This document shows positions 1 through 55,603 of a stretch of DNA of 64,000 nucleotides, in pieces; position 1 is the stretch's first letter, and every line of letters starts with the position of its first letter. The translations under genes and the position numbers were made by a program. The notes under the pieces are model-generated. The model was not told the DNA's origin, searched no databases, and worked only from the letters and a program-made list of their open reading frames with translations. Source of the stretch: Escherichia coli (lineage in GTDB: Bacteria; Pseudomonadota; Gammaproteobacteria; Enterobacterales; Enterobacteriaceae); assembly GCF_003334355.1 (NCBI RefSeq), contig NZ_QOWP01000004.1, one strand, 5' to 3'.

Positions 1-125
1 TGCAGTTGCCATGTTTTACGGCAGTGAGAGCAGAGATAGCGCTGATGTCCGGCAGTGCTTTTGCCGTTACGCACCACCCCGTCAGTAGCTGAACAGGAGG
101 GACAGCTGATAGAAACAGAAGCCAC
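1..125 (-). CDS. insA: IS1 InsA (N-terminal part, truncated by window edge)
   Basis: GTG start at 125..123; minus-strand translation [41 protein letters not shown] matches InsA. Confidence 0.85.
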
Positions 126-180
126 TGGAGCACCTCAAAAACACCATCATACACTAAATCAGTAAGTTGGCAGCATCACC
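1..180 (-). mobile_element. IS1: IS1 insertion sequence, terminal ~180 bp (inverted repeat plus 5' part of insA); element continues beyond the window start
   Basis: Reverse complement of 1..180 reads GGTGATGCTGCCAACTTACTGAT... followed by the insA start, matching the IS1 left end as remembered; terminal repeat ends at 180. Confidence 0.85.
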
Positions 181-7973: not shown

Positions 7974-9332
7974 TTAATTCACCTCAGAAATCTCTTCCAA
8001 CGACACCTTCCGCGTTTCGATGCCAAAAATGGAGAGAACCAGCGCACAGAGCAATAACATGACACCAAGCACCATAAACACCGTGATCGACCCATAATGT
8101 GTTAATAATGCCGCAACGCCATAGGGCGTGAAAACTGCGACGACCCGTCCGACGGCATTAACGAAACCCGAACCGCGCAGGCGTAAATGCGTTGGCCAAA
8201 GCTCCGGGATATAAACCGCCGACGCGAAGCAAACATACATGTATAAAAAGAAGATCATCACCAGACCATAGATTAAAATCGCCCACTCTGTAGTCTGAAT
8301 TGAATAGATATAGCCTAACACGGCAATAATAATAAGTAAGGCGGAGCCAAATAATCGACGAGGAAAATGATCAATAATTAATGCCGCAATAAATATTCCT
8401 ACCGGAGCGCCAATCATAATAACAGCGGTCATTAATATTGATTTATCGACATCAATGCCGGAGTTAACAAATATGGTCGGTATCCATACGGTGATGGTAT
8501 AAAGCGAAATGTTCATTGCAATTAAAACAGTAATCGCGACTAATGTACGTCGTAACATTTCCCCTTTAAACAGGAGCCAGAAGGTACCCTTGATTACCTT
8601 AACCTTGCTGTTGCTCTGGTTCAAAGTAAGCTGGGGTAAACGAATACTCTTCTCTCTTTCAATTTGCTGCTCTACTTCACGAAGTTGGCTTTCTGCACCG
8701 GCGATTTGCCCTTTCCCTGCCAGCCATCGTGGCGACTCAATAAAGTATTTACCTGAGAGAAGCCAGGCTAACAGTATGCCAATACCCCCCAACAGAAACA
8801 TTATCCGCCAACTAAAAAAAGCGATAACCACCACGCCTATCGCCGCAGATAGCATGGGCGACCAGTTACCAACAAATGAGAGCCGCGCGGACCATTTTCC
8901 ACGCACCGTCGCGGGGATAAACTCCGTAAATGAGGCATAGCCAACCATAATCAGCGCCCCCATTCCTGTTCCCATGAGGAAGCGAAAGAAAATGAGCCAG
9001 TACATATCAGGGACAAAAGCGGCCCCTGTTGCAGCAATTCCGACGATGAGAAGATTTATGCGAAACGCCCTGCGCCGCCCAAAGTAGTCACCAATAAACC
9101 CACCAGTAAGTGAGCCGATGAAATAACCAAACATTAATGCCGAGGTAAAGGCGGCATTGAGGAAATTATTTGACCATCCATTGCTTACCAGCTTTGCTAA
9201 GACGACATTACCTGAGTAACTCAAAAACCCCGTTAATAACAGACTAAAGCTTATTATACCAAATATACGATAATGAAACCGGGCCAAAGGCAAGCGGTCC
9301 AGTCTTGCGCCAATTTGATCATATTGTTCCAT
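7974..9332 (-). CDS. ydjE: MFS-family transporter YdjE
   Basis: ORF 7974..9437 (TTG-initiated in the track); internal ATG at 9332 gives 452 aa MEQYDQIGARLDRL; multiple predicted TM segments. Confidence 0.9.
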   Translation of the reverse strand: MEQYDQIGARLDRLPLARFHYRIFGIISFSLLLTGFLSYSGNVVLAKLVSNGWSNNFLNAAFTSALMFGYFIGSLTGGFIGDYFGRRRAFRINLLIVGIAATGAAFVPDMYWLIFFRFLMGTGMGALIMVGYASFTEFIPATVRGKWSARLSFVGNWSPMLSAAIGVVVIAFFSWRIMFLLGGIGILLAWLLSGKYFIESPRWLAGKGQIAGAESQLREVEQQIEREKSIRLPQLTLNQSNSKVKVIKGTFWLLFKGEMLRRTLVAITVLIAMNISLYTITVWIPTIFVNSGIDVDKSILMTAVIMIGAPVGIFIAALIIDHFPRRLFGSALLIIIAVLGYIYSIQTTEWAILIYGLVMIFFLYMYVCFASAVYIPELWPTHLRLRGSGFVNAVGRVVAVFTPYGVAALLTHYGSITVFMVLGVMLLLCALVLSIFGIETRKVSLEEISEVN

Positions 9333-25738: not shown

Positions 25739-27214
25739 ATGATTCAGTCAACACGTATTTCCATGGGGTTATTCTTTAAATATTTTTTATCGTTAACGAA
25801 AATTGATCTTGGTCAAAACTATATATCTCTGCCATCAATAAAATCCAGCACTCACATTGCTCTCCTTTTTATGGTTTCTATGGGTACACAAAAATTAAAA
25901 GCTCAAAGCTTTTTTATTTTCAGTTTATTGCTGACGTTAATTTTATTTTGCATTACTACCTTATATAACGAAAACACAAATGTAAAACTCATCCCACAGA
26001 TGAATTACCTGATGGTTGTTGTGGCTTTGTTTTTCCTTAACGCCGTCATTTTTCTTTTCATGTTAATGAAATATTTCACTAACAAACAAATTTTACCAAC
26101 ACTCATTTTAAGCCTTGCATTTTTAAGTGGCCTTATCTATTTAGTTGAAACCATTGTAATTATCCATAAACCAATTAACGGCAGTACACTGATCCAGACA
26201 AAGTCGAATGATGTTTCTATTTTCTATATTTTCCGCCAACTCAGTTTTATTTGTTTAACCTCGCTGGCACTCTTTTGTTATGGAAAAGACAACATCCTTG
26301 ACAACAATAAGAAAAAAACGGGAATCCTGTTGCTGGCGCTGATTCCTTTTTTAGTTTTTCCCCTTCTGGCACACAATCTGAGCAGTTATAACGCTGACTA
26401 TTCTTTGTATGTCGTCGACTACTGTCCTGACAACCATACTGCGACCTGGGGAATCAACTATACAAAAATATTGGTTTGTCTGTGGGCATTTTTACTGTTC
26501 TTTATTATCATGCGTACACGATTAGCCAGCGAACTATGGCCATTAATAGCATTATTATGTCTGGCATCGCTATGCTGCAACTTACTTCTACTGACTCTGG
26601 ATGAGTATAATTACACCATCTGGTACATCAGTCGCGGGATTGAAGTCTCCAGTAAACTGTTTGTTGTGTCTTTTCTGATTTATAACATTTTTCAGGAACT
26701 GCAACTCTCCAGCAAACTGGCAGTTCATGATGTGCTGACCAATATTTATAATCGGCGCTACTTTTTCAACAGCGTAGAGTCATTATTGTCGCGACCTGTT
26801 GTTAAGGACTTCTGTGTCATGCTGGTTGATATTAATCAGTTCAAACGCATCAATGCCCAATGGGGACATCGTGTGGGTGATAAAGTGCTGGTTTCAATTG
26901 TCGATATTATCCAGCAAAGCATCCGCCCCGATGATATTTTAGCGCGACTGGAGGGTGAGGTGTTTGGCTTGCTATTTACCGAACTCAATAGTGCCCAGGC
27001 AAAAATCATTGCGGAACGTATGCGTAAAAATGTCGAACTCCTGACCGGCTTTAGTAACAGATATGATGTTCCTGAACAAATGACCATCAGTATTGGCACG
27101 GTTTTTTCAACGGGTGACACGCGTAATATCTCGCTTGTCATGACGGAAGCAGATAAAGCCTTACGCGAAGCGAAAAGCGAGGGGGGCAACAAAGTGATTA
27201 TTCATCATATTTAA
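25739..27214 (+). CDS. dgcI: GGDEF-domain membrane protein with degenerate active-site motif (EGEVF)
   Basis: 491 aa; N-terminal multi-TM domain; C-terminal GGDEF fold with DVLTNIYNRRYF but RLEGEVFGLLF in place of GGDEF. Confidence 0.9.
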   Translation: MIQSTRISMGLFFKYFLSLTKIDLGQNYISLPSIKSSTHIALLFMVSMGTQKLKAQSFFIFSLLLTLILFCITTLYNENTNVKLIPQMNYLMVVVALFFLNAVIFLFMLMKYFTNKQILPTLILSLAFLSGLIYLVETIVIIHKPINGSTLIQTKSNDVSIFYIFRQLSFICLTSLALFCYGKDNILDNNKKKTGILLLALIPFLVFPLLAHNLSSYNADYSLYVVDYCPDNHTATWGINYTKILVCLWAFLLFFIIMRTRLASELWPLIALLCLASLCCNLLLLTLDEYNYTIWYISRGIEVSSKLFVVSFLIYNIFQELQLSSKLAVHDVLTNIYNRRYFFNSVESLLSRPVVKDFCVMLVDINQFKRINAQWGHRVGDKVLVSIVDIIQQSIRPDDILARLEGEVFGLLFTELNSAQAKIIAERMRKNVELLTGFSNRYDVPEQMTISIGTVFSTGDTRNISLVMTEADKALREAKSEGGNKVIIHHI

Positions 27215-27394
27215 GTGCAAAAATATTCAGAGCCATGCTTTTTGCGTGGCTTTTGCATACAATTTATTACTATTACCCCTAAATTTCCCCTCCCCAGCGG
27301 CGCAGAGATGAGTATAATTAGCGCCCCTGTGCCAGGCCGCAATCGAACTTTATCTGGTTTTCTCGTTTCACTAACCGAAGGAGTGCCATTTATC

Positions 27395-28885
27395 ATGAAA
27401 TTGCACCATAGAATGCTCCGGCATTTTATCGCCGCAAGTGTCATTGTGCTGACATCTTCCTTCCTTATTTTTGAACTTGTCGCCAGCGACAGAGCAATGA
27501 GTGCCTATCTGCGCTATATCGTGCAGAAAGCAGACTCCTCCTTTCTTTATGATAAGTATCAGAATCAGAGTATTGCCGCGCATGTGATGCGCGCTCTCGC
27601 TGCTGAGCAGTCGGAAGTGTCGCCAGAACAGCGGCGCGCCATCTGCGAGGCTTTTGAGTCTGCCAATAATACCCATGGCTTAAACCTGACTGCCCATAAA
27701 TAACCGGGCTTACGCGGCACACTACAAACCGCATCCACTGACTGCGACACAATTGTGGAAGCTGCAGCACTATTACCCGCTTTTGATCAGGCAGTGGAAG
27801 GCAACCGCCACCAGGATGATTACGGTTCAGGTCTTGGGATGGCCGAAGAGAAATTTCACTATTATCTCGATCTCAATGACCGCTATGTCTATTTTTATGA
27901 GCCGGTTAATGTTGAATACTTTGCGATGAATAACTGGTCCTTCCTGCAGTCAGGAAGTATTGGCATCGATCGCAAAGATATTGAAAAGGTATTTACCGGG
28001 CGTACCGTATTGTCGAGCATTTACCAGGATCAGCGTACTAAACAGAACGTGATGAGTTTGCTGACGCCGGTATATGTCGCAGGGCAGCTAAAAGGGATTG
28101 TGCTGCTGGATATTAACAAAAACAATTTGCGGAATATCTTTTACACTCATGACCGCCCTCTCCTCTGGCGTTTTCTCAATGTCACGCTAACCGATACCGA
28201 TTCGGGGCGCGACATTATCATCAACCAGAGCGAAGATAATCTGTTCCAGTATGTCAGTTACGTCCATGACTTACCGGGCGGCATTCGTGTCTCGTTATCC
28301 ATTGATATTCTTTACTTTATCACGTCTTCGTGGAAAAGCGTTCTGTTCTGGATTTTGACGGCGTTAATTTTGCTGAATATGGTGCGGATGCACTTCCGTT
28401 TATACCAAAATGTGTCGCGAGAAAATATTAGTGATGCGATGACTGGACTGTATAATCGCAAAATTTTAACCCCTGAACTGGAGCAGCGGTTGCAGAAACT
28501 GGTGCAAGCCGGTTCTTCGGTGATGTTTATTGCAATTGACATGGACAAGTTAAAGCAAATAAATGACACCCTCGGTCATCAGGAGGGGGATTTAGCGATT
28601 ACGTTATTAGCTCAGGCGATTAAACAATCGATTCGTAAAAGTGATTATGCCATCCGACTCGGTGGCGATGAATTCTGCATCATTCTTGTCGATTCGACGC
28701 CGCAAATTGCAGCACAACTGCCTGAACGTATCGAAAAACGTCTGCAACATATCGCGCCGCAGAAAGAGATTGGCTTCTCTTCCGGTATTTACGCGATGAA
28801 AGAAAACGATACGTTACATGATGCGTATAAAGCTTCCGATGAGCGTTTATATGTCAATAAGCAGAACAAAAACAGCCGTTCATGA
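27395..28885 (+). pseudogene. dgcJ: Diguanylate cyclase yeaJ/dgcJ interrupted by an in-frame TAA at 27701..27703
   Basis: ORFs 27215..27703 and 27755..28885 share one frame separated only by the TAA; ATG 27395 (RBS aaggag) to 28885 is 497 codons, matching the 496 aa K-12 protein with one stop; intact GGDEF (RLGGDEF) lies downstream. Confidence 0.8.
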
Positions 28886-28927
28886 TAACCTTCTGTGGTT
28901 GTTTGCTTGTAATCTCAGGAGCGTGAA

Positions 28928-29431
28928 ATGACTGAAATGGCTAAAGGAAGCGTGACGCATCAGCGGTTAATCGCTTTATTATCACAAGAAGGTGCTAACT
29001 TCCGCGTCGTTACCCATGAAGCGGTAGGTAAATGTGAAGCGGTGTCAGAAATTCGTGGCACCGCTTTAGGCCAGGGAGCTAAGGCACTGGTATGTAAAGT
29101 CAAAGGCAATGGCGTAAATCAACATGTTCTGGCGATCCTCGCAGCCGATCAACAGGCCGATCTGAGCCAACTCGCCAGCCATATAGGCGGATTACGCGCT
29201 TCGTTGGCCAGCCCGGCGGAAGTCGATGAACTCACAGGCTGTGTCTTCGGCGCGATCCCCCCTTTCAGCTTCCATCCAAAACTCAAACTGGTTGCCGACC
29301 CTCTACTCTTCGAACGATTTGATGAAATCGCCTTCAATGCAGGTATGCTGGATAAATCCGTTATTTTGAAAACCGCGGATTATTTGCGCATTGCGCAACC
29401 AGAACTGGTCAATTTCCGCCGCACTGCGTAA
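28928..29431 (+). CDS. yeaK: YbaK/ProX-family aminoacyl-tRNA deacylase-like protein YeaK
   Basis: 167 aa ORF matching YeaK. Confidence 0.9.
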   Translation: MTEMAKGSVTHQRLIALLSQEGANFRVVTHEAVGKCEAVSEIRGTALGQGAKALVCKVKGNGVNQHVLAILAADQQADLSQLASHIGGLRASLASPAEVDELTGCVFGAIPPFSFHPKLKLVADPLLFERFDEIAFNAGMLDKSVILKTADYLRIAQPELVNFRRTA

Positions 29432-29536
29432 CTAGCCTGTCCGTTCAATAAGCAGAACGGACAAAACCAGCACAACAGCAATGGCAAAAAACGATGACGT
29501 GATAATCAGTGTCTCGACGAACATTTGATCGTTCAT
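29432..29536 (-). CDS. yoaI: Small membrane protein YoaI (34 aa)
   Basis: Minus-strand ATG at 29536; translation [34 protein letters not shown]; below the ORF-track size cutoff. Confidence 0.7.
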
Positions 29537-29705
29537 AGCATGCCCCCGGGAGATAGCTGTTTTCACGTTATTGTTAGCGTGCACAAATGGCAGTTTGATG
29601 ACAGTTCGCCTGATTTTTTATGCAAAAAACGTAAAGATTTTCTACTTCCTTCCTGCAGCAAGCGTAAAGTAAGCAGGCTTATTATTTTTTGGCAAGGAAA
29701 CCACG

Positions 29706-30152
29706 ATGTTTGATGTCACTTTGCTGATCCTGCTCGGGTTAGCTGCGCTGGGCTTTATCAGTCATAACACCACTGTCGCCGTTTCAATTCTGGTGTTGAT
29801 CATTGTCCGCGTCACACCGTTAAGCACCTTTTTCCCGTGGATTGAAAAACAGGGGCTAAGTATCGGGATAATCATTCTGACGATTGGCGTTATGGCCCCC
29901 ATCGCCAGCGGGACGCTACCGCCCTCAACCTTGATTCACTCGTTTCTGAACTGGAAATCGCTGGTGGCAATTGCAGTAGGCGTTATTGTCTCCTGGCTGG
30001 GTGGGCGCGGCGTGACGTTAATGGGCAGCCAGCCGCAACTGGTTGCTGGGCTGCTGGTGGGCACTGTTTTAGGCGTAGCGCTGTTTCGCGGCGTACCGGT
30101 TGGCCCGCTTATTGCCGCGGGTCTGGTTTCGCTGATTGTGGGGAAACAGTAG
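29706..30152 (+). CDS. yeaL: UPF0756 inner-membrane protein YeaL
   Basis: 148 aa hydrophobic ORF. Confidence 0.9.
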
Positions 30153-30930
30153 TTAATCCCGCAATATATCGGCCTGGCGTTTGCCCCAGGCCTTTCTTAA
30201 ACATAGTAATAAAGGCCGTTGTTGAATCATACCCCAGCGTATGAGCAACTTTCTGTACAGTATCGCCTTTCACTAATCCCTGAAGCGCCATAATCAGCTG
30301 TAACTGCTGTCGCCACTGGCGAAAACTCAACCCCGTCTCTTTTACTATCAGTCGGGCAAGATTGCGTTCACTCATCGCAAAAAAGCCAGCCCATTGCCCC
30401 AATGACCCCCACTCGACGGGCTCTTTCGCCATCATCTCCACCATCGCGCGGATTTTAGGATGAGAAGAAACGGGTAGGTGCAGCTGTTGTTGTGGCTGCT
30501 GAGGGAGTTCATCAAACAGGACATGAATTAATCTGCGGGTCATCGGCTCAGCACGCTGAGTCGTCGTCCTGTTTGCCAGAGTTAAAATTAATTCCCGGCA
30601 TAAGGGCGATATTTTCAATGTGCAACAGGTTGTCGGCATTGTCACTGCGCTGGGTTCGATAAACAGAAAACAGAGTTCAGCGTTAGCTGTCACTTGATTG
30701 CTATGTTCCACCCCGCCCGGTATCCAAACCGCATATTGTGGCGGCACCATCCACAAAGCATTTTCCACCGTACAGGTAATTGCACCATGTAATGCCAGTA
30801 TCAGCTGTCCTTTGCGGTGCTGATGTACAGGACTGGTTAACTCATCCGTTCCGGCGTGAATACAAAATGCGACCGCGGCTTCATGGTGTCGGTCGGGTTC
30901 ATAGCCATTGAGATTCAACCTGTGCATCAT
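30109..30930 (-). CDS. yeaM: AraC-family transcriptional regulator YeaM (NimR)
   Basis: 273 aa; cupin-like N-terminus and C-terminal AraC helix-turn-helix; divergent from yeaN. Confidence 0.9.
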
Positions 30931-31026
30931 TTTGTCCGAATTTAGCGATAATTTGTCATTTTAGCTTGATTCAACATAACTATAAAAACGGTAAGGTACA
31001 GCCTCGTTTGTAACAATGAGAAGCAT

Positions 31027-32208
31027 ATGACCTGTTCAACTTCATTAAGCGGCAAAAACAGGATTGTCCTTATCGCTGGCATTCTGATGATTGCCACAAC
31101 ATTACGCGTCACCTTTACCGGCGCAGCACCGTTACTGGATACGATTCGTTCCGCTTACTCGCTGACGACAGCGCAAACCGGCTTATTGACCACCCTGCCA
31201 TTATTGGCCTTTGCGCTAATCTCACCTTTGGCCGCCCCGGTAGCGCGACGTTTTGGTATGGAACGTAGCCTGTTTGCCGCGTTACTTTTGATCTGTGCTG
31301 GTATCGCAATTCGCTCTCTCCCTTCGCCTTACTTATTATTTGGCGGTACAGCGGTCATTGGCGGTGGGATTGCATTAGGCAATGTCTTACTGCCAGGATT
31401 AATTAAACGCGATTTCCCTCATTCCGTCGCCAGACTTACCGGCGCATATTCCCTGACAATGGGAGCTGCGGCGGCACTTGGATCGGCTATGGTCGTGCCG
31501 CTGGCTTTGAACGGTTTTGGCTGGCAAGGCGCGTTGCTCATGCTGATGTGTTTTCCTCTGCTGGCTCTTTTTTTATGGCTGCCACAGTGGCGAAGCCAAC
31601 AACATGCAAATTTGAGTACCTCGCGCGCCTTACATACTCGGGGTATCTGGCGTTCGCCGCTTGCCTGGCAGGTCACATTGTTTCTTGGGATCAACTCACT
31701 GGTCTATTACGTGATTATTGGCTGGCTTCCGGCGATCCTCATCAGTCACGGCTATAGCGAAGCACAGGCGGGTTCACTGCATGGTTTGCTGCAACTAGCC
31801 ACAGCAGCTCCCGGTTTGCTGATCCCTCTTTTCTTACATCATGTGAAAGATCAGCGTGGTATTGCAGCGTTCGTTGCCTTGATGTGCGCAGTGGGCGCTG
31901 TTGGGCTCTGCTTTATGCCAGCGCACGCGATCACCTGGACTCTGCTTTTCGGCTTTGGTTCCGGCGCAACAATGATACTGGGGTTGACGTTCATTGGTCT
32001 TCGGGCAAGTTCTGCGCATCAGGCGGCGGCACTCTCGGGGATGGCACAATCCGTCGGGTATTTGTTGGCAGCCTGTGGGCCGCCGCTGATGGGTAAAATA
32101 CACGATGCTAACGGTAACTGGTCTGTACCACTTATGGGTGTTGCCATACTTTCACTACTGATGGCGATTTTCGGACTTTGCGCCGGGAGAGACAAAGAAA
32201 TTCGCTAA
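31027..32208 (+). CDS. yeaN: MFS transporter YeaN (NimT)
   Basis: 393 aa ORF with 12-TM MFS architecture. Confidence 0.9.
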   Translation: MTCSTSLSGKNRIVLIAGILMIATTLRVTFTGAAPLLDTIRSAYSLTTAQTGLLTTLPLLAFALISPLAAPVARRFGMERSLFAALLLICAGIAIRSLPSPYLLFGGTAVIGGGIALGNVLLPGLIKRDFPHSVARLTGAYSLTMGAAAALGSAMVVPLALNGFGWQGALLMLMCFPLLALFLWLPQWRSQQHANLSTSRALHTRGIWRSPLAWQVTLFLGINSLVYYVIIGWLPAILISHGYSEAQAGSLHGLLQLATAAPGLLIPLFLHHVKDQRGIAAFVALMCAVGAVGLCFMPAHAITWTLLFGFGSGATMILGLTFIGLRASSAHQAAALSGMAQSVGYLLAACGPPLMGKIHDANGNWSVPLMGVAILSLLMAIFGLCAGRDKEIR

Positions 32209-32262
32209 TATCCGGTGCTATAGTGACGTAACAAATCATGCGTGAAAGGGAGAACAAACACG

Positions 32263-32610
32263 ATGAATATTCAGTGCAAACGCGTTTATGATCCGGCTGA
32301 ACAGAGCGATGGTTATCGCATACTGGTCGACCGCCTCTGGCCGCGCGGTATCAAAAAAACCGATTTAGCCCTTGATGAGTGGGATAAAGAAATCACGCCG
32401 TCAACGGAACTGCGCAAAGCCTTTCACGGCGAAGTCGTCGATTTTGCAACCTTTCGCGAGCAATATCTTGCAGAACTGGCGCAACACGAGCAAGAAGGAA
32501 AGCGGCTGGCGGACATCGCCAAAAAACAGCCGCTGACCCTGCTCTACTCAGCAAAAAACACCACGCAGAACCATGCGCTGGTGCTGGCCGACTGGCTACG
32601 TAGCTTGTGA
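32263..32610 (+). CDS. yeaO: DUF488-family protein YeaO
   Basis: ORF 32242..32610; ATG 32263 with upstream aggga gives 115 aa MNIQCKRVYDPAEQSDG. Confidence 0.88.
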   Translation: MNIQCKRVYDPAEQSDGYRILVDRLWPRGIKKTDLALDEWDKEITPSTELRKAFHGEVVDFATFREQYLAELAQHEQEGKRLADIAKKQPLTLLYSAKNTTQNHALVLADWLRSL

Positions 32611-32631
32611 TTTTAGTACAGCATCCGGCGG

Positions 32632-32886
32632 TTATTTTTCACCAGCCGGATGGTCACGCCGCCACAATGCCCATTCATCAATCGTTTCACCGCCCGGTAA
32701 TTTGCAATTGTTGCTGACCCCTTGCGCTGTCTGCACTGGAATGAGCGTCCCGCCCTTCTGCTGGCAATAGACCGACGCCGGATTTGCCATACCAATCTGC
32801 GGCGGTTTAGGTGCTTCTGGCTGAGAAGGGGTTGAACAACCAGCCAGGACCAGCAAGCAAGGCAGAACAAAACTGATAATTTTCAT
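32632..32886 (-). CDS. yoaF: DUF333 lipoprotein YoaF
   Basis: 84 aa; lipoprotein signal with lipobox LAGCS. Confidence 0.88.
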   Translation of the reverse strand: MKIISFVLPCLLVLAGCSTPSQPEAPKPPQIGMANPASVYCQQKGGTLIPVQTAQGVSNNCKLPGGETIDEWALWRRDHPAGEK

Positions 32887-33068
32887 TTATTGATCTCACA
32901 TATTTATCCAAGATTAGAGTATCGCGGTATCGTTTTGTTTTGCAGCACTATTTTTATTACATTCACTCAAAACATATTACGTCTTGTTTCATCTTTGTTG
33001 ATGATGTTTTATCATGCCTGCAAAGATTAAATAATCAGCATTTACCCGCCGTATCCTGGAGTTGTTCC

Positions 33069-34093
33069 GTGTCAGATCAGATTATCGCCCGCGTCTCGCA
33101 ATCCCTTGCCAAAGAACAGTCACTGGAAAGTCTGGTCCGACAGCTTCTGGAGATGCTGGAAATGGTCACTGATATGGAATCAACCTACCTGACCAAAGTG
33201 GATGTCGAAGCGCGCCTGCAGCATATTATGTTTGCCCGTAACAGCCAGAAAATGCACATCCCGGAGAATTTTACCGTCTCGTGGGATTACTCGTTATGCA
33301 AACGCGCCATTGATGAAAACTGCTTTTTCAGCGATGAAGTCCCCGACCGTTGGGGTGACTGTATTGCGGCACGCAATCTTGGCATCACCACATTTCTGAG
33401 CACGCCAATTCACTTACCGGATGGATCATTCTATGGCACGCTTTGCGCCGCCAGCAGTGAGAAGCGCCAGTGGAGTGAACGCGCGGAACAGGTTTTACAG
33501 TTATTCGCCGGACTGATTGCACAATATATTCAAAAAGAGGCACTGGTTGAACAGCTGCGCGAAGCCAATGCTGCGCTGATTGCGCAATCGTATACCGACT
33601 CGTTAACCGGCTACCGAATCGGCGGGCGATTTTTGAAAATCTGACGACACTGTTTTCCCTCGCCCGGCATCTTAACCATAAGATAATGATCGCGTTTATC
33701 GATCTGGATAACTTCAAATTAATCAATGATCGTTTTGGTCATAATAGTGGCGATCTGTTTCTCATTCAGGTTGGCGAGCGCCTTAATACGCTCCAGCAAA
33801 ATGGCGAAGTTATTGGTCGTCTCGGCGGTGATGAGTTTTTAGTTGTTTCACTAAACAACGAGAATGCGGATATTTCGTCGCTGCGAGAACGCATTCAGCA
33901 GCAAATACGTGGAGAATATCACTTAGGTGATGTTGATTTGTATTATCCCGGTGCCAGTCTTGGCATAGTAGAAGTCGATCCTGAAACAACCGATGCAGAC
34001 AGTGCCCTGCATGCTGCCGATATTGCGATGTATCAGGAGAAAAAACACAAACAGAAAACACCTTTTGTCGCGCATCCAGCGCTACATTCCTGA
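33069..34093 (+). pseudogene. dgcP: GAF-GGDEF diguanylate cyclase yeaP/dgcP disrupted by a 1-nt deletion (-1 frameshift) near 33611..33613
   Basis: ORF 32940..33644 (GAF part, GTG start 33069) and ORF 33686..34093 (GGDEF part with RLGGDEF) are in different frames; adding one nt to ggctaccg (giving ggcTTAccg) restores SLTGLPNRRAIFENL and a 341 aa product. Confidence 0.8.
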
Positions 34094-54004: not shown

Positions 54005-55603
54005 ATGCAAAAAGCACAACGGATCATTAAAACCTATCGCCGTAATCGAATGATTGTTTGTACGATTTGCGCACTCGTTACGCTCGCTTCGACCCTGAGC
54101 GTGCGATTTATTTCACAGCGTAACTTAAATCAACAACGGGTAGTACAATTCGCCAATCACGCTGTAGAGGAATTAGATAAAGTACTGCTTCCCCTACAGG
54201 CAGGTAGCGAAGTCTTGCTTCCGCTGATTGGTCTGCCCTGCTCTGTCGCCCATTTGCCATTACGTAAACAGGCGGCAAAACTCCAAACTGTGCGATCCAT
54301 TGGCCTGGTGCAAGACGGCACACTTTATTGCTCCAGCATTTTTGGTTATCGCAATGTGCCCGTCGTGGACATTCTGGCTGAACTTCCTGCACCGCAACCA
54401 CTTTTACGCCTGACGATCGACCGTGCCCTGATTAAAGGCAGTCCGGTTTTGATTCAATGGACGCCTGCAGCGGGCAGTAGCAATGCTGGGGTCATGGAGA
54501 TGATTAACATCGACTTACTGACGGCAATGCTCCTTGAGCCACAACTGCCGCAAATCAGTAGCGCCAGCCTGACGGTGGACAAACGGCATTTGCTCTATGG
54601 TAATGGGCTGGTAGATTCCCTTCCGCAACCTGAAGACAATGAAAACTATCAGGTTTCTTCGCAACGCTTTCCTTTTACCATTAACGTTAATGGTCCGGGG
54701 GCTACGGCGCTGGCATGGCACTATCTTCCAACACAATTACCGCTGGCGGTGCTGCTAAGTTTACTGGTGGGCTACATCGCCTGGCTGGCGACCGCTTACC
54801 GGATGAGCTTTTCCCGCGAAATCAATCTGGGCCTAGCGCAACATGAGTTCGAATTGTTCTGTCAGCCTTTGCTTAATGCGCGCAGCCAGCAATGTATTGG
54901 TGTAGAGATTTTGCTGCGCTGGAACAATCCGCGTCAGGGCTGGATTTCACCGGATGTGTTTATTCCTATCGCGGAAGAACATCATTTAATTGTGCCACTG
55001 ACCCGCTATGTGATGGCAGAAACCATTCGTCAGCGCCATGTTTTCCCGATGAGTAGTCAGTTTCATGTTGGCATTAACGTCGCACCCAGCCATTTTCGCC
55101 GTGGTGTGCTGATAAAAGATCTCAATCAGTACTGGTTTAGCGCTCACCCGATTCAGCAACTGATCCTCGAAATCACCGAACGCGATGCCTTACTGGATGT
55201 TGATTATCGGATTGCCCGCGAGCTACATCGTAAAAACGTCAAACTGGCGATTGATGACTTCGGCACCGGCAACAGTTCATTTTCCTGGCTTGAAACATTA
55301 CGTCCTGACGTGCTGAAAATTGATAAGTCATTTACCGCAGCTATAGGTTCTGACGCGGTTAACTCGACGGTGACCGATATCATCATCGCGCTGGGGCAAA
55401 GACTGAATATTGAACTGGTGGCGGAGGGCGTGGAAACGCAAGAACAGGCGAAGTATTTGCGCCGTCATGGCGTGCATATTTTGCAAGGGTATTTGTACGC
55501 ACAGCCGATGCCGCTACGTGATTTTCCCAAATGGCTGGCGGGCAGCCAACCGCCGCCCGCCCGGCATAATGGACATATCACGCCCATTATGCCGTTACGT
55601 TAA
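54005..55603 (+). CDS. pdeD: EAL-domain c-di-GMP phosphodiesterase with N-terminal membrane/periplasmic sensor
   Basis: ORF 53975..55603; ATG 54005 gives 532 aa; EAL-type motif region CQPLLN...GVEILLRW. Confidence 0.9.
   Translation: MQKAQRIIKTYRRNRMIVCTICALVTLASTLSVRFISQRNLNQQRVVQFANHAVEELDKVLLPLQAGSEVLLPLIGLPCSVAHLPLRKQAAKLQTVRSIGLVQDGTLYCSSIFGYRNVPVVDILAELPAPQPLLRLTIDRALIKGSPVLIQWTPAAGSSNAGVMEMINIDLLTAMLLEPQLPQISSASLTVDKRHLLYGNGLVDSLPQPEDNENYQVSSQRFPFTINVNGPGATALAWHYLPTQLPLAVLLSLLVGYIAWLATAYRMSFSREINLGLAQHEFELFCQPLLNARSQQCIGVEILLRWNNPRQGWISPDVFIPIAEEHHLIVPLTRYVMAETIRQRHVFPMSSQFHVGINVAPSHFRRGVLIKDLNQYWFSAHPIQQLILEITERDALLDVDYRIARELHRKNVKLAIDDFGTGNSSFSWLETLRPDVLKIDKSFTAAIGSDAVNSTVTDIIIALGQRLNIELVAEGVETQEQAKYLRRHGVHILQGYLYAQPMPLRDFPKWLAGSQPPPARHNGHITPIMPLR

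Follow-up and report, generated by a model that had tools for sequence, protein, structure and literature searches.

Does the chromosomal region that carries cdgI (yeaI), dgcJ (yeaJ) and dgcP (yeaP) record a Shigella-like loss of c-di-GMP synthesis, or the ordinary gene decay of a single strain? The original prediction favored the former, since three clustered GGDEF genes appeared degenerate or inactivated while the phosphodiesterase gene pdeD remained full length. The 64-kb window (the whole stretch of DNA analyzed) is a part of the E. coli chromosome corresponding to 1.845–1.909 Mb of the K-12 map. Across the 17 kb compared, it was 100% identical to the draft genome of ECOR-04, one of the strains in the ECOR reference collection. 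Contig LYBG01000719.1 of GCA_002190165.1, position 1 of which is window position 90, and the Logan assembly SRR10357312 both contained the dgcJ and dgcP lesions together, and their 17 kb matched the window with 100% identity. GCA_002190165.1 falls under LYBG00000000, which is ECOR04 (PMC13293308). According to the titles of recent papers, ECOR-04 serves as a host for phages, and a Hachiman defense system originates from it.

Of 65 K-12 genes that were compared with their counterparts in the window, 63 were intact, dgcJ and dgcP being the only disrupted ones (Table 1). No IS-interrupted genes were found in the 64-kb window, the sole IS being an IS1 end. The widespread pseudogenes and IS disruption of a Shigella-like chromosome were therefore missing from the window, and this, together with the match to an ECOR strain, speaks against the proposed Shigella-like host adaptation. 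Truncation of topB by IS1 was considered as a third lesion and rejected, since the 648-aa variant allele is intact and is likewise annotated in PSS-12. Two elements alone, the cspA thermoregulator and sroD, were recognized in an Rfam scan of the window, and neither belongs to the region of interest. The degenerate CdgI and the phosphodiesterases encoded within the window remain intact.

Table 1. Coordinates of the analyzed features (positions in the 64-kb window)
Feature	Position	Strand	Basis or remark
IS1 copy, end	1..180	-	Adjoins topB; strain marker common to PSS-12; coincides with the ECOR-04 draft contig end
topB, variant but intact allele, 648 aa	367-2313	-	Annotated intact in PSS-12
cdgI (yeaI), intact, 491 aa, MASE4 + degenerate GGDEF	25739..27214	+	ORF; Pfam; K-12 comparison
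dgcJ (yeaJ) pseudogene, full 1491-nt gene with one nonsense codon	27395..28885	+	K-12 comparison
Premature TAA (Y103*) in the periplasmic GAPES1 sensor domain of dgcJ	27701..27703	+	K-12 and AR_0369 have TAC
Residual dgcJ ORF, 376 aa, GTG start	27755..28885	+	Pfam GAPES1 92-274/274, GGDEF 3-160/161
dgcP (yeaP) pseudogene, 1025 nt (1026 nt in K-12)	33069..34093	+	K-12 comparison
DgcP N-terminal fragment, 191 aa, GAF + out-of-frame YRIGGRFLKI (10 residues)	33069..33644	+	Pfam GAF
1-bp deletion GGG>GG (K-12 nt 541) in dgcP, in LTGLPNRR at the start of GGDEF	33609..33610	+	K-12 comparison
DgcP C-terminal ORF, 135 aa, incomplete GGDEF	33686..34093	+	Pfam GGDEF 35-160/161
pdeD (yoaD), intact EAL protein, 532 aa	54005..55603	+	K-12 comparison

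The gene predicted to be an eroded dgcI is cdgI, the name dgcI belonging to yliF. The EGEVF motif at the A-site was indeed present (residues 405–409, nt 26951–26965), and it is the same in K-12: the two proteins have equal lengths, carry EGEVF at the same position and differ solely by P24L. The MASE4 domain (model positions 5–237 of 239) and the full GGDEF fold (1–161 of 161) were recognized by Pfam, and an RPDD I-site of the RxxD type was located five residues upstream of EGEVF. The K-12 gene is annotated as encoding the "putative c-di-GMP binding protein CdgI," and c-di-GMP binding was demonstrated for the K-12 protein (PMC5635695). Cimdins et al. (PMC5635171), citing Povolotsky & Hengge 2016, reportedly give YeaI/CdgI as conserved in 61 of the 61 genomes compared. 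Since both the motif and the length match K-12, cdgI is not eroded in this strain, and EGEVF is its normal degenerate, putatively c-di-GMP-binding state, which does not make it a pseudogene. The proposed three-gene cluster is thus reduced to two lesions, in dgcJ and dgcP, and the proximity of the three GGDEF genes reflects the ancestral E. coli gene order.

The predicted nonsense codon in dgcJ is real. The gene differed from its K-12 counterpart by 8 nt without indels, and its translation contained a single internal stop at codon 103, where a single C>A change at position 27703 turned the Tyr codon TAC, present in K-12 and in the closest relative AR_0369, into TAA. The allele distribution was assessed by 40-mer searches against 5,426 complete genomes. 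The mutant 40-mer centered on the SNP was found in none of them, while the wild-type 40-mer, used as a positive control, had matches in 4,104. Y103* was found only in the ECOR-04-type datasets (GCA_002190165.1 and SRR10357312). Matches to a "102-aa DgcJ" were considered as a sign of a widespread nonsense allele, and this was rejected: the sequences in question (L011–L019) are partial genes, each cut by a contig end shortly ahead of the SNP, the mutant 40-mer is absent from them, and fragments of other arbitrary lengths had similar contig counts. Independent dgcJ lesions do occur elsewhere, namely, an extra C after nt 277 (L021), E88* (L027), and an IS insertion (L022).

Because of the stop, there is no uninterrupted 496-codon ORF for the membrane cyclase DgcJ with TM1 and the whole GAPES1 domain. 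In the 376-aa ORF downstream of it, GAPES1 is preserved over its C-terminal two thirds, followed by TM2 and by an entire GGDEF domain that has the RKSD I-site and the GGDEF A-site (motif RLGGDEF). This ORF would be translatable solely via re-initiation, and no clear Shine-Dalgarno sequence was seen by eye before either GTG 27755 or ATG 27839. Full-length DgcJ is presumably not made, and its activity is probably lost or strongly reduced, because the remaining product would be devoid of TM1 and of one third of the sensor, and no clear ribosome-binding site was seen. Nevertheless, dgcJ may not be null, since c-di-GMP is still produced in Shigella from pseudogenes whose nonsense codons lie upstream of GGDEF.

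The frameshift in dgcP was also verified. The reading frame changes after ...DSLTG (residue 181) and ends at a TGA codon (33642–33644), so that GAF and GGDEF no longer occur in one 341-aa cytoplasmic cyclase. The downstream 135-aa ORF lacks the first 34 positions of the GGDEF model, including the LTGLPNRR motif, and no clear Shine-Dalgarno sequence was seen by eye upstream of it. Full-length DgcP is probably not made, and its activity is likely lost, because a complete GGDEF domain is present in neither fragment. The 40-mer with the deletion had matches in 7 of the 5,426 complete genomes; these seven were assembled independently and are exactly the nearest relatives. In AR_0369 and PSS-12, which carry the identical allele, it was annotated as "frameshifted" by PGAP, i.e., this allele is already flagged in RefSeq annotations; dgcJ was annotated as intact in both of these genomes, the two dgcP-deleted relatives whose annotation was read. 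The exact 191-aa N-terminal product was found in 351 contigs, AR_0369 and PSS-12 among them, compared to 967 contigs for the 135-aa C-terminal ORF, and isolates of the clone with the deletion come from human and pig sources as well as from surface water. Other DgcP N-terminal fragments had different frameshift points (P0032, P0037, P0039, and P0044).

As for c-di-GMP degradation, pdeD is full length, as predicted; the encoded CSS-EAL phosphodiesterase had no amino acid differences from K-12 over 532 aa. This intactness is uninformative, because a protein 100% identical to that of K-12 represents the default state, and the overall pool of c-di-GMP in K-12 is drained by PdeH, not PdeD (PMC5635695). 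Among the knockouts of all 29 GGDEF/EAL genes in K-12, only those of dgcE, dgcM, dgcC, pdeH, and pdeR altered matrix production, and cellular c-di-GMP was unchanged upon knockout of dgcE, dgcM, dgcC, or pdeR (PMC5635695). With two catalytic cyclase genes disrupted, the proposed bias toward lower c-di-GMP is reasonable in direction, but in view of the K-12 knockout data, a noticeable drop of the pool due to the loss of DgcJ and DgcP is not expected with PdeH present. During growth of K-12, DgcP is reportedly one of the cyclases with stronger expression (PMC5635695), and its loss could therefore matter under some conditions. The transfer of K-12 phenotypes to ECOR-04 may fail; a literature search for biofilm or c-di-GMP phenotypes of ECOR-04 returned nothing relevant.

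Lesions of this kind are known from other E. coli. In natural isolates, genes of c-di-GMP turnover are often predicted to have lost their function, and strain-specific pseudogenes were described among the GGDEF/EAL genes (Cimdins et al. 2017; PMC5635171). As in the strain analyzed here, stops and frameshifts in those isolates affect single cyclase or phosphodiesterase genes of otherwise normal commensals and pathogens. Povolotsky & Hengge (2016, J Bacteriol 198:111) is reportedly a further source on GGDEF/EAL pseudogenes in E. coli. Neither dgcJ Y103* nor the dgcP nt-541 deletion was found in the literature searched. The 5' deletion of dgcF in K-12 is likewise a loss of one accessory cyclase in one lineage without obvious consequence, although it concerns another gene and another type of lesion (PMC5635695). 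In S. flexneri (Ojha et al. 2024, PMC11327459), cyclase genes also carry nonsense mutations or frameshifts upstream of an intact GGDEF domain, and dgcJ is defective as well. However, most GGDEF genes of S. flexneri are hit genome-wide, compared to 2 of the 65 genes in our 64-kb window; dgcP is intact there and frameshifted here, cdgI is absent there and intact here, and the S. flexneri dgcJ has a deletion removing the GGDEF domain, whereas the nonsense allele of ECOR-04 retains it (PMC11327459). The breakage of dgcJ and dgcP is an already-known kind of strain-level decay and not evidence of Shigella-like c-di-GMP loss.

Taken together, the two independent point lesions probably represent the ordinary decay of genes in a single strain, a commensal E. 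coli with the ECOR-04 haplotype. Two accessory diguanylate cyclase genes, lying 4 kb apart by ancestral gene order, would have been struck independently and at different times. The loss of 1 bp from a run of three G would first have split dgcP between the GAF sensor and the GGDEF catalytic domain and would then have been inherited by a small clone, and later a C>A transversion would have created the ochre stop at dgcJ codon 103 in the ECOR-04 line only. The cdgI and pdeD genes are in their normal states, outside any erosion. The occurrence of the dgcP allele in 7 of 5,426 genomes versus 0 of 5,426 for the dgcJ allele indicates separate events of different age, and the independent lesions in other strains indicate that both genes decay repeatedly.

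An origin of both lesions in sequencing or assembly errors, which the original prediction had named as a possibility, is extremely improbable: the dgcP deletion does lie in a short homopolymer, but seven complete genomes that stem from different projects share it, dgcJ was altered by a substitution rather than by a homopolymer indel, and both alleles recur in independent short-read assemblies 100% identical to the window. It is rather unlikely, but conceivable, that the dgcJ nonsense mutation arose during the long storage and passage of ECOR-04 and not in a wild host. Its absence from all 5,426 complete genomes, the seven nearest relatives among them, would agree with such an origin, as would the fact that every dataset in which it was found matches the ECOR-04 draft with full identity. 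On the other hand, at least two assemblies of separate production (GCA_002190165.1 and SRR10357312) have the allele, and a storage-born mutation must therefore be older than the distribution of the stock; the sequence itself does not separate a storage origin from a wild one. In Shigella, dgcE, dgcQ, and dgcN have nonsense codons before GGDEF, and c-di-GMP is still made from internal starts (PMC11327459). By analogy, truncated active cyclases could be produced here, in which case the genes would not be truly inactivated. This seems quite unlikely, even though the 376-aa ORF after the dgcJ stop preserves the catalytic domain with both its A-site and I-site, because no clear Shine-Dalgarno sequence was seen at either candidate dgcJ start, and TM1 would be missing from the product along with GAPES1 model positions 1–91 of 274. 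For dgcP, activity from the downstream ORF is unlikely given its truncated GGDEF domain.

A further explanation is adaptive loss, i.e., selection for a lower local c-di-GMP output, either in culture or in the gut, acting, for example, through more motility or less matrix and repeatedly favoring cyclase knock-outs; both lesions would then have been selected rather than neutral. Besides the independent dgcJ and dgcP lesions in other lineages and the wide sampling of the dgcP-deleted clone, this would account for the private frameshift in dgcE of the sister genome AR_0369 (1 of 5,426 complete genomes). Because this allele is confined to AR_0369, the idea that the master cyclase gene dgcE is eroding throughout the clade was rejected. 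The length-weighted chance of two random hits in exactly dgcJ and dgcP was ~1e-3, a post hoc estimate; the fact that both disrupted genes among the 65 encode cyclases hints at more than random neutral decay. Yet relaxed selection predicts recurrent lesions too, and K-12 knockouts of dgcJ and dgcP have no matrix phenotype (PMC5635695), so adaptive loss is a poorly probable explanation. The proposal that positive selection in this commensal clone preferentially targets cyclase genes for loss, based on three independent hits in a small clade (dgcP shared, dgcJ hit only in ECOR-04, and dgcE only in AR_0369), is very doubtful. If true, it would mean that gut commensals, and not Shigella alone, can adapt by trimming their local c-di-GMP sources step by step.

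With ordinary strain-level decay as the preferred explanation, the significance of the finding beyond strain bookkeeping is slight, and no new question is opened. Those who use ECOR-04 in biofilm, motility, or c-di-GMP studies work with a strain that probably lacks full-length DgcJ and DgcP. For E. coli as a whole, the two lesions are two more examples of a known pattern, the repeated decay of accessory GGDEF genes.

From topB to yebO, the window was collinear with K-12 MG1655 (~1.845–1.909 Mb on its map), and nearly every complete E. coli genome (5,425 of 5,426) matched the 10 kb surrounding the finding. Comparison of 65 K-12 genes with the window identified dgcJ and dgcP as the only disrupted ones, the remaining 63 being intact. 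Three other candidate lesions were rejected: topB is an intact variant allele, the ydjK alignment merely ends two bases early, and yebO runs past the window end. Two Rfam matches at gathering score, the sRNA sroD and a cspA-type thermoregulator upstream of cspC, are expected K-12 features.

Features of the window and their state relative to K-12
Feature	Position	Strand	State
IS1 end	1–180		window begins within the IS1 copy
topB	367–2313	minus	variant 3' end, 648 aa
cdgI (yeaI)	25739–27214		intact 491-aa ORF
dgcJ (yeaJ)	27395–28885		8 nt differences from K-12, no indels
dgcP (yeaP)	33069–34093		one G missing from a GGG run (GG at 33609–33610)
yeaV	38601–40211	plus	full-length 536-aa ORF
sroD	43595–43680	minus	
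cspA-type thermoregulator	62729–63189	minus	
pdeD (yoaD)	54005–55603		full length, no amino acid differences from K-12

The predicted nonsense codon in dgcJ was confirmed as a C>A substitution at 27703 relative to K-12, which converts the Tyr103 codon TAC to TAA within the periplasmic GAPES1 domain. Downstream of the stop, a 376-aa ORF beginning with GTG at 27755 covers GAPES1 model positions 92–274 of 274 and the complete GGDEF domain and lacks TM1; no clear Shine-Dalgarno sequence was seen upstream of it on reading the sequence. We infer that DgcJ activity is probably lost or strongly reduced. The frameshift in dgcP was likewise borne out: relative to K-12, the G deletion shifts the frame after DSLTG, within the conserved LTGLPNRR motif that opens the GGDEF domain, and a stop follows ten codons further. 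The N-terminal fragment retains GAF only, and a 135-aa downstream ORF corresponds to GGDEF model positions 35–160 of 161. Judged from the sequence, DgcP activity would be lost.

The lesions were searched for using 40-mers centred on the variant, so that each 28-base megablast seed included it, and the fragment products were looked up by exact sequence in public datasets. The dgcP deletion was present in seven of 5,426 complete genomes (AR_0369, MLI023K1, MLI023K2, OW1E2, E41, PSS-12, and PRO_A-1412), which are exactly the nearest relatives of the window, and the gene is already labelled "frameshifted" by PGAP in AR_0369 and PSS-12. The exact 191-aa DgcP fragment occurred on 351 contigs. We conclude that the deletion was inherited within, and marks, a small but widely sampled clone. 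The mutant dgcJ 40-mer was found in none of the 5,426 complete genomes, versus 4,104 for the wild-type control, and PGAP annotates dgcJ as intact in AR_0369 and PSS-12. AR_0369 differs from the window at just four sites in 10 kb, one of which is the dgcJ nonsense mutation. Most other "102-aa" dgcJ matches (loci L011–L019) proved to be genes cut by contig ends and lacking the mutation.

Both lesions occurred together on 17 kb 100% identical to the window in the draft GCA_002190165.1 (contig LYBG01000719.1) and the Logan assembly SRR10357312, that is, in at least two datasets among the matches listed, besides three further similar places. The same dgcJ allele in both rules out an assembly error, and the dgcP deletion, carried by seven complete genomes, is no such error either. 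LYBG00000000 is ECOR04 (PMC13293308). Position 1 of LYBG01000719.1 corresponds to window position 90, within the IS1 end, as would be expected if a short-read assembly of this same strain had broken there. The IS1 junction coincides with this contig end and is common to PSS-12, where, after the same IS1, a disrupted TPR-protein gene stands instead of ynjI (locus L030 3182–5225); it is absent from AR_0369 and OW1E2. We conclude that the window haplotype is ECOR-04 or an indistinguishable clone, and that the dgcJ nonsense mutation arose later than the dgcP deletion and is private to the ECOR-04 line.

Other differences were found among these very close relatives. In AR_0369, ydjE carries an IS1 insertion with a 9-bp target duplication (locus L006 23768–25903; window ~8420–8428), and window ydjE is intact. 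A 225-bp segment at the yeaV 5' end (38505–38728) is missing from K-12 and AR_0369; the K-12 yeaV annotation begins at an internal start (481 aa), and PGAP describes the AR_0369 copy as "missing N-terminus." The truncated version of this BCCT transporter gene therefore looks to be the one in the K-12 reference. The window and AR_0369 diverge by 0.05% over 8420–38504 (15 SNPs in 30 kb) but by 0.34% over 38729–64000 (85 SNPs in 25 kb), an increase that suggests a recombination breakpoint near 38.5–38.7 kb, at the yeaV boundary.

The third gene of the proposed cluster, termed dgcI in the original prediction, is annotated in K-12 as cdgI, "putative c-di-GMP binding protein," and in current nomenclature dgcI is a separate gene, yliF (PMC5635695). 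The EGEVF motif of cdgI, taken as erosion, is at the same position in K-12, P24L being the only protein difference. By Pfam, the product has MASE4 and a full-length GGDEF fold, and an RPDD I-site lies five residues upstream of EGEVF. For CdgI, Sarenko et al. 2017 (PMC5635695) report c-di-GMP binding together with an intact I-site and a degenerate A-site. In PSS-12, but not in the window, an IS5 lies between yeaH and cdgI, ~175 bp upstream of the latter (locus L002 2783–3763); this insertion could alter expression of the normally silent cdgI.

Of the three clustered GGDEF genes, therefore, only two carry lesions, dgcJ and dgcP. Between dgcJ, which follows cdgI, and dgcP lie seven unrelated genes (yeaK, yoaI, yeaL, nimR, nimT, yeaO, and yoaF). 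Since the order is identical in K-12, the proximity is ancestral and not peculiar to this strain. Post hoc length-weighted probabilities of two random hits were ~1e-3 for exactly dgcJ and dgcP and ~1e-2 for any of four GGDEF/EAL genes. Independent dgcJ lesions occur elsewhere, namely +1C after nt 277 (locus L021), E88* (L027), and an IS insertion (L022). DgcP N-terminal fragments with other frameshift points were also found (protein entries P0032, P0037, P0039, and P0044), and the 135-aa C-terminal ORF is on 967 contigs, far above the share of this clone. In the sister genome AR_0369, a private 1-bp deletion in dgcE (locus L031 11644–14960; record 3806643–3809959) cuts the protein short at residue 839, between its GGDEF domain and its degenerate EAL domain; among the 5,426 complete genomes the deletion occurred in this one alone, and it also occurred in one SRA run. 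In natural E. coli, genes for c-di-GMP turnover are often predicted to have lost their function (PMC5635171); the dgcJ, dgcP, and dgcE lesions fit this pattern and do not separate relaxed from positive selection.

A bias of the strain toward low c-di-GMP was an overreach. Of all 29 knockouts tested in K-12, the only ones to affect macrocolony matrix or csgB expression were dgcE, dgcM, dgcC, pdeH, and pdeR; under standard conditions, the remaining cyclases and phosphodiesterases "did not contribute" (Sarenko et al., PMC5635695). The pool is drained mainly by PdeH; cellular c-di-GMP was unchanged even in dgcE, dgcM, dgcC, and pdeR knockouts, and in a pdeH mutant background, removing several individual cyclases lowered it by 20%–50% (PMC5635695). 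From these data, the expected effect would be loss of poorly defined local DgcJ and DgcP outputs rather than a global drop. The pdeD gene is full length, as predicted, but has no bearing on this question. Shigella makes a poor comparison: in Shigella flexneri, lesions affect most GGDEF genes, dgcP has stayed intact, no cdgI is present, and the GGDEF domain of dgcJ is lost (PMC11327459), whereas in the window 63 of the 65 genes, including cdgI, are intact, dgcP is disrupted, and the GGDEF-coding part of dgcJ is retained. The sequence observations of the original prediction thus stood, apart from the gene name and the counting of cdgI as eroded, while the interpretation went too far. The dgcJ and dgcP lesions are a known kind of event, strain- and clone-specific pseudogenes in accessory GGDEF genes, and for one of the two, dgcP, the RefSeq annotations of relatives already carry a flag.
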